Shown one piece after another: positions 3,002 through 19,840 of a stretch of DNA of 64,000 bases (its first letter is position 1; each line of letters begins with the position of its first letter). This DNA is from a virus (Duplodnaviria; Caudoviricetes). The notes beneath the pieces were generated by a model. The model had not been told where the DNA came from, did not search any database, and saw nothing but the letters and a program-made list of their open reading frames with translations. The DNA is taken from the IMG/VR virus record IMGVR_UViG_3300021256_000066, positions 65,507 through 129,506 of that record. The stretch is one strand, 5' to 3'. The position numbers and the translations under genes were made by a program.

Positions 3002-3053
3002 GACTCGGCAGAGCTGATGCGGGCATCGCTCTGCGCTCGCTGCTCCGAAAGTT

Positions 3054-3087
3054 GTCCCATTTTTTATTTTCTTAATATTACCTTTGC
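3054..3087 (+). promoter_or_regulatory. Putative late promoter GTCCCA-N19-TACCTTTGC
   Basis: Bacteroidetes -7 element TAnnTTTG at 3079-3086; same upstream GTCCCA as at 54195 and 58611. Confidence 0.55.
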
Positions 3088-3100
3088 CAAAGAAAGATTT

Positions 3101-3838
3101 ATGAAACCGATTTTTGATATGAACAAGACAAAGCAACTATTACGCGACATCGCGGCCATCTGGCGTCGGCGATGGGAACACACGAACTGGACGGCGGCGC
3201 TGACATGGGTCGTGGGCGGCATCCTGACGGCGGCTGCCTACGTGCTGGTCGTGTCGGTCATCATGGGCATGCTCAGTTCGTGCGCCACGAAAAAGGAACT
3301 CCACGAGCATCACCAGCACACCGTCAGTGCCGACACGCTGGCCCAGGAGGCCCGTCACGACAGTCACACCAGCCATACGACCGCCAACATCGACTCGCTC
3401 GTAACGGCCTCCGTCTGGGCGGCGATGCAGGAGTTCGTGGCGCAGGAAAAGAGCATGGAGACCACCACTGAGACGATCACGACCTGGGTGGACTCGCTCG
3501 GAAGGGAGATGCGGCAGGAACAGCGCACCACGCAGCGCGAGCTCTCGCGGCAGGAACAGCAGCGCTGGCAGCAGACCGAGGCACGCTGGCAGAACGAGCT
3601 CCACCAGACGCTGCGGCAGATGGACTCAACGTGGAGCGACCGCATCAGCCGCTTCGAGAGCCACCTGCGCGACTCGCTCAACCACGAACTCAGCAAGCAG
3701 ACCGAGACCAGCGGCGCACCCGCCCTCACGTGGTGGCAGCGAATGTGGCAGTGGCTCAAAGGCATCCTCGCGGGTGTCGCCATCTGTGGCGCCCTCTATC
3801 TTACCCGCCGTTTCTGGCAGCCTCTCATCAAACGGTAA
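3101..3838 (+). CDS. Lipoprotein with C-terminal TM helix; candidate unimolecular spanin
   Basis: Hydrophobic segment ending in lipobox-like LSSC, coiled region, C-terminal WWQRMWQWLKGILAGVAICGALYL. Confidence 0.55.
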   Translation: MKPIFDMNKTKQLLRDIAAIWRRRWEHTNWTAALTWVVGGILTAAAYVLVVSVIMGMLSSCATKKELHEHHQHTVSADTLAQEARHDSHTSHTTANIDSLVTASVWAAMQEFVAQEKSMETTTETITTWVDSLGREMRQEQRTTQRELSRQEQQRWQQTEARWQNELHQTLRQMDSTWSDRISRFESHLRDSLNHELSKQTETSGAPALTWWQRMWQWLKGILAGVAICGALYLTRRFWQPLIKR

Positions 3839-4115: not shown

Positions 4116-4445
4116 ATGAAACAGACGACGGAAACAAATTACAAGCATTTCTACACCAAGGGCAACACCGACTACTTCATCACGAAGGAGGGCACGGTGC
4201 TGAGCGCAAGCGACCCTGACAGCGACCCGCAGACGTGGCGCGAGATAGCCACCTATAACGGCAAGGGCTACCGCCGCGTCAGGCTGCAGGGTAAGACGTT
4301 CAAGGTACACCGCCTCGTGGCAGAGGCCTTCGTGCCGAACCCCTACAGCCTGCCAAACGTGCTCCACAAGGACGGCGATCGTGAGAACAATCACTACACC
4401 AACCTGGAGTGGAGCTCACGCCAGAGTAATCATCCACGAGCATGA
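4116..4445 (+). CDS. HNH endonuclease (HNH_3 type)
   Basis: VHRLVAEAFVPNP...VLHKDGDRENNHYTNLEW. Confidence 0.85.
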   Translation: MKQTTETNYKHFYTKGNTDYFITKEGTVLSASDPDSDPQTWREIATYNGKGYRRVRLQGKTFKVHRLVAEAFVPNPYSLPNVLHKDGDRENNHYTNLEWSSRQSNHPRA

Positions 4446-4591
4446 CTGACCGACCGATGATACTGGGGCGGTACAGCCCGAGCCAGAACGGCATAGTGGT
4501 AAGTCCATCGGGGATTGCCCTGTGCCTTGCATGGGGGGGTAACGGGCACGACACCGATAAACCGAAAATACTGATAGAGTATGATATTTAG
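4442..4591 (+). CDS. MTase TRD-like cassette 1 (49 aa; G7 tract 4533-4539; in frame)
   Basis: MTDRPMILGRYSPSQNGIVVSPSGIALCLAWGGNGHDTDKPKILIEYDI; ATGA overlap with the HNH stop. Confidence 0.7.
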   Translation: MTDRPMILGRYSPSQNGIVVSPSGIALCLAWGGNGHDTDKPKILIEYDI

Positions 4592-4769
4592 AGTGACCAA
4601 TACTGCGCAGCCGAAGCCGATACGGGGGGGGCAAATCAGAGCAGTCAACACGACGGGCGACCTGTGTGCCGCCACGCTTACCACGAGATACGATGCCGTC
4701 GGCCCTACGAATATAATTACGCTGGCACACTATCCGATGACCGTAATACTGATAGAGTATGAAATGTAG
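4581..4769 (+). CDS. MTase TRD-like cassette 2 (G8 tract 4624-4631; in frame)
   Basis: ...VNTTGDLCAATLTTRYD...TLAHYPMTVILIEYEM. Confidence 0.72.
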   Translation: MIFRVTNTAQPKPIRGGQIRAVNTTGDLCAATLTTRYDAVGPTNIITLAHYPMTVILIEYEM

Positions 4770-4913
4770 TGGAATAATAAGAATAGGCAACCTCTTCTAC
4801 GACAGTTTCCGCAGTGGATTCGACGGAAACGTTCAGGGCTGTATGGGTGTCACTCAGACGGTCTTGGCTGCCAACGGGGGGGGTATATCTTGGTAGAATA
4901 TGACAACCTATAA
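4759..4913 (+). pseudogene. MTase TRD-like cassette 3, frameshifted at G8 (4876-4883); G9 restores ...QTVLAANGGGYILVEYDNL
   Basis: Manual translation: premature TAG at 4894-4896; the conserved VEY end lies in the shifted frame. Confidence 0.68.
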
Positions 4914-5082
4914 GGCAATCGGCTGGACGCGCAGCGGCAACGGCAGGGGCGATGTGGACCGCTACCACCTCCGCGACATCTCCAACACCATCACCTCGTT
5001 CTGTGGGGGGGGTATTGGGAAGGATTCTGCCACCGGCATGTATAACACCACACCGTATATACTCGTAGAATATGAACTATAA
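4900..5082 (+). CDS. MTase TRD-like cassette 4 (G8 tract 5005-5012; in frame)
   Basis: ...DISNTITSFCGGG...NTTPYILVEYEL. Confidence 0.72.
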   Translation: MTTYKAIGWTRSGNGRGDVDRYHLRDISNTITSFCGGGIGKDSATGMYNTTPYILVEYEL

Positions 5083-5267
5083 CAACTCGCGACTGAACGC
5101 GATGATCATGGGGGGGGCAATGGGAGCCGAACTACCACGGCGAGATGCTCGACACCTACAACCAGCAGGCACACCGCCACACGGCGATCACCATACTGGC
5201 AGGCATATCGTCGCGCAACCACTACTTCGTGTGTGAAGAACGTTTACCATCAAAACTTAGAAAATAT
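5072..5267 (+). pseudogene. MTase TRD-like cassette 5, frameshifted at G8 (5110-5117); G7 fuses it in frame to the MTase core
   Basis: MNYNNSRLNAMIMGG / QWEPNYHGEMLDTYNQ...AITILAGISSRNHYFVCEE continues into the core ORF; current frame stops at 5234-5236. Confidence 0.68.
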
Positions 5268-6740
5268 ATGATTGCAAAAATTTATCCTGACGGGCACCCT
5301 GACTTGCAGGGAAAGAAAGACCCTACGCACCCAGTGCGCTATTTCGACATCCGAAAACTCACTCCACGCGAGTGCTATTCACTGATGGGCGTGCCGCCGC
5401 AGCAGATCGACACGCTGATGAAAACCGAAAAGAGACCATATATGGCATGGGTGGGCGTAGATGCCGAACTGGCTGTGTTTGGACTGGAGCCGAGTGCCAC
5501 GCGCCGCGAGGTGGATGAAGCATATCGCGAGGCTATCGAGAGCCTGAATAACCAGGCAGCTGACGATGCAGACGCACAGGAAGAAACCGACGAAGATACC
5601 GCACGGCTGATGGCAGAGAAGCCCGAAGACAATGCCGAGGAAACCGCGCTGATGCGACAGAACTACGAGATGAACTATCAGCGCATCATCGCTGCCAGTC
5701 AGGAGCAGCGTTACGGTGACGTGCAGATTATTGCCAACTCATCGCATTACAAGCTGGCGGGTAACTCCATCGTCTGCGACGTACTGATGTATATCTACGA
5801 GGAATTGCTCTACCCCACGTACCGCCGACTGCCGCAGGAGCAGACCGACCTATTCGCCCAGCCACAGTTCCGCTTGACCCGAGACTGGAAGAAAGAGCCG
5901 CTGAAGTTGGTAACACTTTGCAGCGGTTACGACAGTCAGGCAATCGCTATGGATATGCTGCAACAGCGATATCCGGACTTCCGATGGGAACTGAAGGCAT
6001 GGAGCGAGTTCGACCCCGAGAGCAGCCGACCATTGGAAGAGCAGCCCGCCATAGTGGCCCATAATCTGCTGTTCCCACAATACAAGGATTTGAACCGGGG
6101 CGACATGACCAAGGCTGATTGGAGCGACCTCGCCGATGCAGGTATCGACCTGCTGACATATAGCACTCCGTGTCAGTCCATCTCACAGGCTGGCAAGCGA
6201 GAGGGTATCAAGAAAGGTAGTGGCACTCGCAGTGCCGTACTTTGGAGTACCGAAGAAGCTGTTCGCCAGATGCGACCGAAGGTGCTGCTGCAGGAGAACG
6301 TGCGGGCGCTTATCAACAGCGTGAACATGCCCGACTTCAAGGAGTGGTGCAGTCTGCTGGAGAGCCACGGCTACGTGAACTTCCTCGCGCCCTCGTTCCC
6401 GACGGTCTGGGGCACCGACAAGCGCGACAAGAAGACCGTGCCGGGCATCCTGAACGCCAAGCACTACGGCGTGCCACAGAACCGCGAAAGGGTGTATATG
6501 GTCTCCGTGCGTGCCGACATGCTCGGCGGCACGCAGTACGAGTTTCCACGTCCTTTCCCGCTCGACAAGTGCATCGCCGACGTGCTGGAGGACAATGTGG
6601 ACGAGCGCTTCTTCCTAAAGCCCGACTCGGTGATCAAGTTCCTCACCGTCAACGAACAGACCGACGGCAGCGACATACACTATATGGTAACGGACCACAA
6701 ACTGAGTGATGAGGAAATCAGACGTGCAAGAGGTGAATAG
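5268..6740 (+). CDS. DNA (cytosine-5) methyltransferase catalytic core, circularly permuted (IX-X-I...VIII), no internal TRD
   Basis: IRKLTPRECYSLMG (IX) and KLAGNSIV (X) precede TLCSGYDSQ (I), YSTPCQSISQAG (IV), QENV (VI) and HYGVPQNRERVY (VIII). Confidence 0.92.
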   Translation: MIAKIYPDGHPDLQGKKDPTHPVRYFDIRKLTPRECYSLMGVPPQQIDTLMKTEKRPYMAWVGVDAELAVFGLEPSATRREVDEAYREAIESLNNQAADDADAQEETDEDTARLMAEKPEDNAEETALMRQNYEMNYQRIIAASQEQRYGDVQIIANSSHYKLAGNSIVCDVLMYIYEELLYPTYRRLPQEQTDLFAQPQFRLTRDWKKEPLKLVTLCSGYDSQAIAMDMLQQRYPDFRWELKAWSEFDPESSRPLEEQPAIVAHNLLFPQYKDLNRGDMTKADWSDLADAGIDLLTYSTPCQSISQAGKREGIKKGSGTRSAVLWSTEEAVRQMRPKVLLQENVRALINSVNMPDFKEWCSLLESHGYVNFLAPSFPTVWGTDKRDKKTVPGILNAKHYGVPQNRERVYMVSVRADMLGGTQYEFPRPFPLDKCIADVLEDNVDERFFLKPDSVIKFLTVNEQTDGSDIHYMVTDHKLSDEEIRRARGE

Positions 6741-6872
6741 GGGGGGCAAATCGGCGGTTGCTACTGGAAACAGAAGGACGGCTATGTGCGCCGTCCGCTC
6801 TGGGGACTGTCCCGCACGCTGAAAGGCGATGGCAATCATCCTGCAGGAATAATCATTGAGTATGAATTATGA
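6733..6872 (+). pseudogene. MTase TRD-like cassette 6; G7 tract (6740-6746) out of frame with GTG 6733, but body is in frame with the core across its TAG
   Basis: GGQIGGCYWKQKDGYVRRPLWGLSRTLKGDGNHPAGIIIEYEL. Confidence 0.62.
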
Positions 6873-7003
6873 AACAGACACCGAGAGCGTGCATCTACTA
6901 CAACTTGTCGCTGATGTATAACGACGGCATGAAGTGGGACTTGGTGGCCAAGACGGTCATCGGCGACACGCATCCACAAGCGCTATTGATAGAGTATGAG
7001 TAG
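6869..7003 (+). CDS. MTase TRD-like cassette 7 (44 aa; no homopolymer)
   Basis: MKQTPRACIYYNLSLMYNDGMKWDLVAKTVIGDTHPQALLIEYE. Confidence 0.65.
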   Translation: MKQTPRACIYYNLSLMYNDGMKWDLVAKTVIGDTHPQALLIEYE

Positions 7004-7196
7004 CATTACCCCCCCCATATTGCGGCAAGTCCCTGTTCGGCGAGTGCGGACGGAGTGGGCAAAAGCCGTCAGGCGGCAGACTGGTACCAACCCTTTTCAG
7101 GCCAAGCAACTGGAGGAGTTTGTGTCGGACTACATGCCTACCATCACCGCCAGCGCAAACATCGAGAACTATATCAAAGTAGAATATGAAATATAG
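6996..7196 (+). CDS. MTase TRD-like cassette 8 (C8 tract 7009-7016; in frame)
   Basis: ...RVRTEWAKAVRR...MPTITASANIENYIKVEYEI. Confidence 0.7.
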   Translation: MSSITPPILRQVPVRRVRTEWAKAVRRQTGTNPFQAKQLEEFVSDYMPTITASANIENYIKVEYEI

Positions 7197-7358
7197 AATA
7201 CAGACAACAAGCACCATGCCGATATACGAAGGCCACCTGGTAAAACCCGGATGGCACCACAAGGCTTGTGAGGTGCTGAATGTGGGGGGGTATCGACATG
7301 TATTCACACCCAGAGCAACAATCTGCTTCAAAAAATCATCATAGAGTATGAGTTATGA
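7186..7358 (+). pseudogene. MTase TRD-like cassette 9, frameshifted at G7 (7284-7290); G8 restores ...NVGGVSTCIHTQSNNLLQKIIIEYEL
   Basis: Manual translation; current frame stops at TAG 7342-7344 inside the junction motif. Confidence 0.68.
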
Positions 7359-7518
7359 AACCAATTAGTTATAAACTTGGAGTCCACATCGTAGGTCATC
7401 GCCTGGAGTGGAAAGGTGGGGGGGTATTGAGAGTAATATGTGGAAGAACATCTGCCCTTGCATCCGTATGAACGATTACAAATGTCCAATGAATTGTCTG
7501 ATAGAGTATGACGATTAA
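7355..7518 (+). pseudogene. MTase TRD-like cassette 10, frameshifted at G7 (7418-7424); G8 restores ...ICPCIRMNDYKCPMNCLIEYDD
   Basis: Manual translation. Confidence 0.66.
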
Positions 7519-7656
7519 GACGCGATATATCAACTGCAACTGCGACAATACGGTCAAGTCGATACTGGCCGGATGTTACAAGTTCGGTGCTGCCACTCTG
7601 CTTAGGGGGGGCAAGCCAGTATGACATCGGTATTGTTTGAATATGAATACGATTAA
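7508..7656 (+). pseudogene. MTase TRD-like cassette 11, frameshifted at G7 (7605-7611); G8 restores ...KSILAGCYKFGAATLLRGGQASMTSVLFEYEYD
   Basis: Manual translation; current frame stops at TGA 7622-7624. Confidence 0.66.
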
Positions 7657-7843
7657 ACTGCGACAGACCACATCGGCCACGGCCAAGCCTATACGGGGGG
7701 GGTACTTCCTGCCCGTCAACACAGCATCAGGAGGTGTCGCTTGCACGCTCAACACCCGCTACGACGGCATGCAGCTGCCAGAAGACATCCTCACGCTGGC
7801 CCATTACCCCAAGACCGTCGTGCTCAGAGAGTATCATTTATGA
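7643..7843 (+). CDS. MTase TRD-like cassette 12 (G8 tract 7695-7702; in frame); paralogue of cassette 2
   Basis: KPIRGG...VNTASGGVACTLNTRYD...ILTLAHYPKTVVLREYHL. Confidence 0.72.
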   Translation: MNTIKLRQTTSATAKPIRGGYFLPVNTASGGVACTLNTRYDGMQLPEDILTLAHYPKTVVLREYHL

Positions 7844-7955
7844 AGGACGAATCAACAGCAGTCAGGACGGCATCGTCATCAGCGCCCGAGGCATTGCCCT
7901 CACCCATACCGCTGGTCACGGCAATTGCCCGAAGATATTGATAGAATATGAGTGA
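7833..7955 (+). pseudogene. MTase TRD-like cassette 13; ATC at the position where other cassettes have ATG; paralogue of cassette 1
   Basis: (I)IYEGRINSSQDGIVISARGIALTHTAGHGNCPKILIEYE. Confidence 0.6.
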
Positions 7956-8202
7956 AGCGAAACGATACAGCACAGCAGGTCGCCCGTTCCTTGAAATCGC
8001 CACGAGGGGGGGGCAGACCGTACTGCGAATCCGACAAGCCACCGAACAGGGCTATATCGAGTGCGACCCGCAGGGTGTCTGCGACCTTGCCTACCCGGAG
8101 AGCGAACTGCGCCGTGCCCGTGTCAAGGACCGAGGCCGCGTCTGCGGAACGCTGATGAGCGACAATCAGCAGTTCTGCGTCTTCATCGAACATGACATAT
8201 AG
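7948..8202 (+). CDS. MTase TRD-like cassette 14 (G8 tract 8006-8013; in frame)
   Basis: IRQATEQGYIEC..GVCDLAYPESELRRARV...VCGTL; resembles, from recall, variable-region segments of phage C5-MTases. Confidence 0.75.
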   Translation: MSEAKRYSTAGRPFLEIATRGGQTVLRIRQATEQGYIECDPQGVCDLAYPESELRRARVKDRGRVCGTLMSDNQQFCVFIEHDI

Positions 8203-19629: not shown

Positions 19630-19840
19630 ATGGCAAAGAAAGTATTTCTCGGAAATGGACTAAGCCGCACGGCGATGGTGTTCAAGATTGCGACGCTGGC
19701 AGGACATAAGCTGACAGTGCCTGAAATGAACCGCATCAAAGATATCAACCCCCGCGCCCTGGAGCGAGTCTATGACTCCGTATTGGGGGGGGGTAAGTAA
19801 GGGCGACGCGCTGTTTGCACTCAGACTTGTATTGAAATAA
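19630..19840 (+). CDS. Small protein with G9 tract; stops at 19800 as written, G8 would extend it to 19840
   Basis: MAKKVFLGNG...YDSVLGGGK* versus ...VLGGVSKGDALFALRLVLK*. Confidence 0.5.

Follow-up and report, generated by a model that had tools for sequence, protein, structure and literature searches.

Why should a single 11-nucleotide sequence recur at most of the boundaries in a string of very short phage genes? The question is posed by an array lying within the final 64 kb (hereafter, the window) of the 129,506-bp IMG/VR virus record IMGVR_UViG_3300021256_000066, where about 14 overlapping mini-open reading frames (mini-ORFs) surround the core of a C5 cytosine methyltransferase, with a joint motif, RTAGARTATGA, between them. 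A scan for ORFs and homopolymers places 12 G7, G8 or C8 tracts in the array, that is, in most of the mini-ORFs. These mini-ORFs, here called cassettes, are designated U1 to U5 upstream of the core (U5 being the one that could be fused to it) and D1 to D9 downstream, and their products are 45 to 85 amino acids long. The initial annotation of this DNA proposed that a ribosome reaching the motif in any frame would stop beside the next start, making it possible to switch cassettes ON and OFF without polarity; it also suggested that the motif might be a crossover point for cassette gain or loss, and its peptide a docking element for the core. The explanation we favor, to which as a whole we would assign a probability of roughly 60%, is that the 11-mer is a composite gene joint rather than a free-standing signal, in which a docking tail, the start codon of the next gene and an A-rich initiation region are superposed. 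The out-of-frame stops that first draw the eye look mostly like by-products.

The motif exists as annotated, is conserved, and is restricted to this system. Its nine + strand matches fall exactly where the initial annotation had put them (Table 1), compared with an expected count of 0.02; none of 100 shuffles reached nine, and neither strand of the whole virus record holds a further copy. The four variant joints are also present as described, and the frame readings are correct: in frame, the motif encodes I/V-E-Y-E/D and is followed 0 to 3 codons on by a stop; in the +1 frame, it reads TAG-nnn-ATG; and in the +2 frame, it gives a TGA overlapping the ATG. Each module is thereby closed just past its tail, and the next module opens in a different frame. 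At most joints, the ATG within the motif is the next start, while cassettes D2 and D5 use, as annotated, a second ATG 7 nucleotides on, the first ATGs opening frames of just 19 and 6 amino acids, respectively. It also holds that two OFF cassettes, U3 and D4, end on the TAG of the motif. A polyprotein made by ribosomal frameshifting or hopping was considered and dropped, since in-frame readings stop within 3 codons of the tail and the joints bear no mark of a recoding site.

Table 1. Positions in the window of the array, the methyltransferase core, and the joints between cassettes.
Feature	Sequence	Position	Strand	Remarks
Whole array		4442..8202	+	4 upstream cassettes, 1 core-fusable cassette, methyltransferase core, 9 downstream cassettes (ORF list and three-frame translation)
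Permuted C5 methyltransferase core		5268..6740	+	starts at the conserved MIAKIYPDG; motifs IX and X, then I-VIII
Core strand just before motif IX	R-Y-F-D-I-R-K-L	5337..5360	+	predicted partner of the cassette I/V-E-Y-E tail
Joint U1/U2	ATAGAGTATGA	4574..4584	+	U2 start ATG 4581
Joint U2/U3	ATAGAGTATGA	4752..4762	+	U3 start ATG 4759
Joint U3/U4	GTAGAATATGA	4893..4903	+	OFF U3 ends on TAG 4894-4896; U4 start ATG 4900
Joint U4/U5	GTAGAATATGA	5065..5075	+	ATG 5072 starts the U5 cassette, which would be core-fused with a G7 tract
Variant joint D1/D2	ATTGAGTATGA	6855..6865	+	without TAG; D2 start is the second ATG, 6869
Joint D2/D3	ATAGAGTATGA	6989..6999	+	D3 start ATG 6996; preceding cassette without tract
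Joint D3/D4	GTAGAATATGA	7179..7189	+	D4 start ATG 7186
Joint D4/D5	ATAGAGTATGA	7341..7351	+	OFF D4 ends on TAG 7342-7344; D5 start is the second ATG, 7355
Joint D5/D6	ATAGAGTATGA	7501..7511	+	D6 start ATG 7508
Variant joint D6/D7	TTTGAATATGA	7636..7646	+	without TAG; D7 start ATG 7643
Degenerate joint D7/D8	AGAGAGTATCA then TTTATGA	7826..7843	+	R-E-Y-H-L-stop; TATCA replaces TATGA
Joint D8/D9	ATAGAATATGA	7941..7951	+	D9 start ATG 7948
Terminal tail of D9	ATCGAACATGA	8185..8195	+	I-E-H-D; genome-preferred ATC; no cassette after

What fixes each base of the joint can be read from a comparison set of 16 related viral loci and 2 bacterial loci. At least 11 arrays, from rumen viromes and Prevotella genomes, are of the same kind and have the same joints (L002-L010, L018 and L019); G/C tracts are many in L002-L009, L018 and L019, and L010 has G6 tracts only. 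In background codon usage, TAT accounts for 47-61% of Tyr codons, ATA for 15-21% of Ile codons and GTA for 13-15% of Val codons. In the tract-rich clade, all 67 joints with a preserved ATG have TAT (63) or CAT (4) as their Tyr/His codon, while at the 10 joints that lack it, mostly array-terminal or directly before the core, TAC or CAC is found in 6 and the fifth residue is N or H in 5. Since TAT and CAT are universal with the ATG and relaxed without it, the T and G of the joint must be held by the start codon of the next cassette, which the initial annotation had recognized in the ATG of the motif. The fixed G leaves D and E as the only polar choices for the fifth residue, giving GA, and the TGA in the +2 frame follows automatically from a Tyr codon (TAT), a polar residue and an ATG. 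The Glu codon is free (GAA 54%, GAG 46%).

The Ile/Val codon is biased in a different manner. Raw counts at the joints are ATA 35, ATT 10 and ATC 5, with GTA 8 and GTT 3; with orthologs weighted, ATA takes 17.2 of 24.3 Ile joints (P = 2e-7 versus background) and ATC is depleted (P = 2e-5). However, this preference for A is not peculiar to the codon that creates the TAG. A stands in third position in 66% of joint codons (codon -1) and in 61% of those two codons upstream (codon -3), where it yields no stop in any frame, as against 7-32% in the cassette body, and at ATG-less joints the two biases fade to 0.30 and 0.40. Leaders of the other 73 ORFs of this phage are likewise A-rich and C-poor, with T at -1 in 56%. 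Relatives of the core sit in the genome of Prevotella sp. MGM1 and in a rumen Prevotellaceae metagenome-assembled genome, and for that reason the host is taken to be a member of the Bacteroidota, which make no use of Shine-Dalgarno sequences and in which upstream adenines are positive determinants of initiation (PMC6847099). Most simply, the four final codons of a cassette would at the same time serve as initiation region for the one that follows. The synonymous constraint foreseen in the initial annotation does exist: ATA is favored and ATC, GTC and GTG are avoided, but ATT or GTT occurs in about a quarter of orthologous cassettes. Such orthologs come close to the free synonymous variation that would do away with the out-of-frame stops, although with three codons avoided the variation is not free.

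The protein side of the joint depends on the core. The ORF at 5145-6740 matches PF00145 (E = 1.3e-37), and its translation contains TPCQS, QENV, QNRER, LCSGYDS, RKLTPREC and AGNS, so that motifs IV, VI, VIII, I, IX and X of the C5 cytosine methyltransferases can all be read. Permutation is evident from a two-piece alignment of the relative L011 to M.HhaI, in which residues 80-133 align with HhaI 271-319 (motifs IX-X) and residues 225-379 with HhaI 52-201 (motifs IV-VIII); the core of the window has the same motif order. Its MIAK start is kept in 8 relatives, and in L002, L004, L005, L009 and L010 the core begins at MIAKIYPDG without any target recognition domain (TRD). The type H order, with the TRD in the same polypeptide (TRD-IX-X-I..VIII), is found in L011-L014 and L017 but not in the window phage, whose sole core-fusable TRD (ATG 5072) is out of frame at G8. 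Just ahead of motif IX, the strand R-Y-F-D-I-R-K-L is invariant across 8 cores of 66-90% overall identity and immediately precedes IRKLTP, the segment aligned with M.HhaI 271-276. In the phage collection, no record covered 80% or more of the core.

In some relatives, a tract (C7-C10) occurs in the core as well, among the Pro codons that follow motif IX (GVPPP), at L003:4215, L004:193, L005:4107, L006:4250, L007:4218, L008:4048 and L019:4095. It disrupts the core frame in L006 (C10) and L008 (C9), and the window phage is without it; in the phages that carry this tract, the core is probably phase-variable too.

Cassettes with unrelated bodies share the tail. On the explanation we favor, each cassette would be a free-standing TRD mini-protein whose last beta-strand, hydrophobic-hydrophobic-E-Y-D/E, pairs antiparallel with the invariant R-Y-F-D-I-R-K-L opening motif IX, rebuilding in trans the strand pair that canonical enzymes form in cis. 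All cassettes would end alike, whatever their specificity, because a common strand docks on the core. A complex of the core (alignment of 8 sequences) and the 60-amino-acid cassette at 4900-5079 (alignment of 5) was modeled; the scores were 0.62, 0.62 and 0.70, and three controls all gave 0.00. That mark is passed by 58 of 80 solved complexes and by 2 of 110 mismatched pairs, a calibration that is only rough here because the alignments were our own. At least 61% of contacts are shared between the runs, and the predicted local distance difference test (pLDDT) of the partner is 43-54. The contacts with least predicted error join cassette residues 53-60, the tail, to core residues 24-31, the R-Y-F-D-I-R-K-L strand, in antiparallel orientation; others are made with motif VIII and the segment past it and with motif X, the region occupied by the TRD in canonical enzymes. 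The model thus supports, short of demonstration, both cassette-core binding in trans and the docking function suggested for the tail in the initial annotation. Independent support for a docking tail comes from sequence comparison, in that the relatives with a cis-fused TRD (L011-L014 and L017) are without the E-Y-E tail. For one of them, L011:3305-4585, a single-sequence AlphaFold2 prediction had a mean pLDDT of 34 and was not used.

Family assignment of the cassettes by other routes gave little. Pfam scans of 7 in-frame cassettes and 1 from L002 returned no meaningful match, and a search for longer relatives of the 49-amino-acid first cassette retrieved only metagenomic calls of 92-160 amino acids and one 314-amino-acid PF01555 protein; no canonical C5 enzyme with the TRD of the first cassette in cis was found in that search.

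The tracts within the cassettes are hypermutable. Phages L007 and L008 are 97% identical over 4 kb, and 7 of the 12 indels between them are 1-2-nucleotide changes in G/C tracts; the single indel between L004 and L005 is also in a tract. A cassette that is ON in one phage can have an OFF ortholog in the other. Intragenic homopolymers of at least 7, varying in length between close genomes, are the signature of simple-sequence-repeat phase variation, seen here as a difference between genomes. Cassettes are also shuffled: they change position, and even side of the core, from phage to phage. L002, L006 and L007, for example, carry the module of 4900-5082 on the downstream side, where L006 also carries that of 4581-4769.

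Given such switching, it is natural to ask whether the out-of-frame stops are themselves under selection, as a three-frame insulator whose TAG and TGA would make ribosomes coming from an OFF cassette stop beside the next ATG and re-initiate, rendering switching non-polar. The arrangement itself is not in doubt. At nearly every joint, all three frames close within -9 to +13 nucleotides of the next ATG, with the ON-frame stops at +5 to +11, the +1 TAG at -6 and the +2 TGA at +1; a ribosome in any frame does meet a stop beside the next start, and an upstream stop within a few nucleotides of a downstream start is a feature of termination-reinitiation. Of 9 cassettes in which no other +1 stop lies between tract and ATG, 8 have the TAG, and the single joint that has no TAG and an open +1 frame, at 6337 in L006, would let reading run 135 nucleotides into the next cassette. 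Yet the TAG is about as common where it serves no such need, being found in 24 of 40 cases in which an earlier stop makes it redundant (Fisher P = 0.14; P = 0.21 at the level of ortholog groups) and in 7 of 10 joints preceded by a cassette without a tract. Coding and ATG constraints together dictate the TGA, the bias to A is equal at the codon where no stop can arise (0.61 versus 0.66), and ATT/GTT variants turn up inside orthologous groups. Moreover, among about 22 cassettes that are OFF today, just 3 end on the TAG, 4 end on a TGA at -9 and 1 on the ATGA, while the rest, at least 13, end 12-46 nucleotides upstream. The TAG is more frequent in the tract-rich clade (about 64% of internal joints) than in the loci with few or short tracts (L010-L017; about 19%), which points toward the insulator, but this contrast amounts to roughly one phylogenetic event and is confounded by GC content (0.40 versus 0.50-0.54). 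Joint U1/U2 has a double stop in the +1 frame, a TGA at -9 plus the TAG at -6; such tandems, which arise from a G-ending Leu codon followed by ATA, were considered as a designed double stop and the idea was dropped, G-ending Leu codons already being 50-60% of background. We thus find the case for selected stops unlikely, although a role of the motif in non-polar switching is plausible from the sequence.

Two further alternatives place the function of the motif in DNA exchange rather than in translation. In one, joint and G tract would supply microhomology for the gain, loss, movement or conversion of cassettes, perhaps helped by an HNH endonuclease. The placing of cassettes on different sides of the core in different phages is what such exchange would produce, and cassette homology blocks end within the joint window in 18 of 29 cases (17% expected, P = 9e-8) and begin at a joint or G tract in 17 of 29 (26% expected). 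An HNH_3 endonuclease gene (window 4116-4445) is conserved at the head of the array, where its stop overlaps the ATG of the first cassette (ATGA), and in L010 an HNH_3 gene (3003-3284) lies inside the array and starts from a joint ATG. However, blocks are expected to end at a universally conserved island whenever neighbors differ, under any mechanism; 11-14 nucleotides is short for homologous recombination; and the free GAR position, with the Ile codon varying within orthologous groups, gives no sign of homogenization. The relaxation of ATG and codons where no ATG follows points to translation and not to DNA pairing. We therefore regard exchange as an improbable account of the motif; the cassettes fit exchange as joint-bounded units, with homology ending at the motif, the motif itself being at most a candidate crossover site. 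Some homology blocks run from the exact G tract to the joint (window 4624, 7695 and 8006 versus L007:3789, L007:7182 and L002:6878), and the parts of a cassette before and after the tract may be exchanged separately. The other alternative is that the cassettes are silent donor copies in the manner of pilS, not translated on their own, for which the motif would be the flank for gene conversion into the core-fused site at 5072. That the window phage has one core-fusable position only, that relatives have cis-fused TRDs, and that about half of the cassettes are out of frame would all suit this scheme. Silent copies, however, should not each keep, at every internal joint, an ATG with the frame open through the N-terminal part to the tract, nor should the ATG be lost mainly where no cassette follows; 1-nucleotide tract changes that flip ON and OFF between near-identical phages would be pointless for them, and the modeled complex favors binding in trans. 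We consider donor copies very improbable indeed.

In the favored explanation, three layers are superposed at the joint. Docking would set the peptide; the start of the next gene, embedded in Tyr plus D/E as T-ATG-A, would fix TAT (or CAT) and the following G; and in a Prevotella host without Shine-Dalgarno sequences, the 12 nucleotides before the ATG would be biased to A-ending codons such as ATA and GTA. The out-of-frame TGA and TAG would then arise from the three layers. A ribosome that has slipped at a G tract would terminate within -9 to +13 nucleotides of the next ATG, or earlier, and almost never enter the next cassette; with all three frames closed, each cassette could be initiated or re-initiated independently. 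By-products or not, closed frames are probably useful for independent expression of the cassettes. Several points weigh against this explanation. Of 26 independent tract-bearing cassettes, 25 have a +1 stop ahead of the next ATG, where synonymous resampling predicts 20.4 (P = 0.003), a modest excess that by-products do not wholly account for and that speaks for a selected insulator. ATA at the joint, at about 70% of Ile codons, exceeds the roughly 50% predicted at -5 by the general leader profile, and A at -5 is absent from the determinant positions named in PMC6847099. On the protein side, the fold of the partner is uncertain, with pLDDT below 50 in two of the three runs, and the model may have passed from likeness to solved methyltransferases, the two parts belonging to a well-known fold, rather than from binding in trans. 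Finally, we infer, rather than observe, both the translation of each cassette and termination-reinitiation at the joints.

The array has irregularities that should be recorded. Cassette D8 (window 7840-7955) resembles the first cassette and has no tract and no in-frame start; by ORF scan, the ATG at 7840-7842, in the TTTATGA that follows joint D7/D8, is shifted by one base from the frame of this module. L002 has the same kind of degenerate joint at 7464. D8 is either a decayed cassette or one expressed by some other route. Directly after the core (window 6738-6870), its TAG stop runs into a G7 tract, and the module that follows, with the usual tail, stays in the frame of the core; the ATG of this module, at 6709, falls within the core gene and would need a G8 tract to be in frame, and the sequence past the core stop differs in relatives. 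Elsewhere in the window, the sole other G run of 7 or more is a G9 tract at 19785-19793.

Beyond the arrays with the same joints, the loci L011-L017 are nearly devoid of tracts; their cassettes are fewer and end in looser tails (IEKDL, RERDL, DYEFD). In a low-GC clade (about 40% GC; L011:3305-4588, L013:3851-5128, L012, L014 and L017), the TRD type of window 4900-5082 is fused in cis to the N-terminus of the core, and this clade looks like a non-switching version of the system. L018 comes from a cultured isolate, Prevotella sp. MGM1 (NZ_BEWV01000204.1:51327-60460), whose array has G7-G11 tracts and the same joints; this strain could be a tractable one.

Full-text literature searches turned up no C5 enzyme described as having free-standing TRD genes switched by tracts, and each of the known systems closest to this one is alike in some respects only. 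In operons that use termination-reinitiation (ATGA or TAATG), as here, the next ATG lies within a few nucleotides of the stop, with no spacer and no Shine-Dalgarno sequence, and one of the three frames of the joint gives the classic ATGA overlap; here, however, the overlap falls within a conserved protein tail and recurs 12-13 times along the array, and the slippery tracts of the upstream genes make stops in all frames relevant, coupling being predicted from the sequence. Multispecific C5 methyltransferases with several short tandem TRDs in one polypeptide, which are not phase-variable, have reportedly been described for the Bacillus phages SPR, phi3T and rho11s by Trautner and co-workers. They too are phage-borne and built with short tandem TRD modules, presumably protecting against many host restriction systems, but in the array described here no single ORF holds several TRDs in tandem; the TRDs are separate overlapping genes with individual G-tract switches. 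With phasevarions (Type III mod, Type I hsd), the array shares G/C tracts of 7 or more in coding sequence that differ in length between near-identical genomes. Known examples either put one enzyme under such a switch or rearrange hsdS by inversion, whereas here a single C5 enzyme would have up to 12 tracts, each controlling one of its specificity modules. Also related are the naturally split and the permuted C5 methyltransferases (M.AquI alpha/beta; M.BssHII, M.Alw26I and others of type H); as in permuted enzymes of the M.BssHII type, motifs IX and X here come before I-VIII, and fragment complementation is documented for C5 enzymes bisected in this region (PMC5944983). Core and cassettes are separately encoded and may assemble as a split enzyme of the M.AquI type does, the modeled binding scoring 0.62 versus 0.00 for the controls, but the detached piece is a TRD alone and not half an enzyme, and there are about 14 alternative pieces per core, each with a common docking strand.

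More tentatively, the joint may be an evolved hub, at once docking strand, three-frame-closed re-initiation site and module boundary, through which up to 14 independently switched mini-proteins acting in trans on one core would give a Prevotella phage a combinatorial and stochastically varying 5-methylcytosine methylome against host restriction; we would not rate this as likely. If the cassettes do act in trans, a single core would be served by a library of interchangeable specificity modules whose docking tail shares its bases with the next start. This would be a new architecture for C5 methyltransferases and a compact natural design for modular, switchable DNA-recognition parts. The joints also constitute a natural synonymous series (ATA, ATT, ATC) behind ON and OFF genes, a test bed for re-initiation in the Shine-Dalgarno-less Bacteroidota. 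And if the stops are only by-products, the lesson would be that overlapping coding and initiation constraints can, by themselves, yield a striking multi-frame motif.

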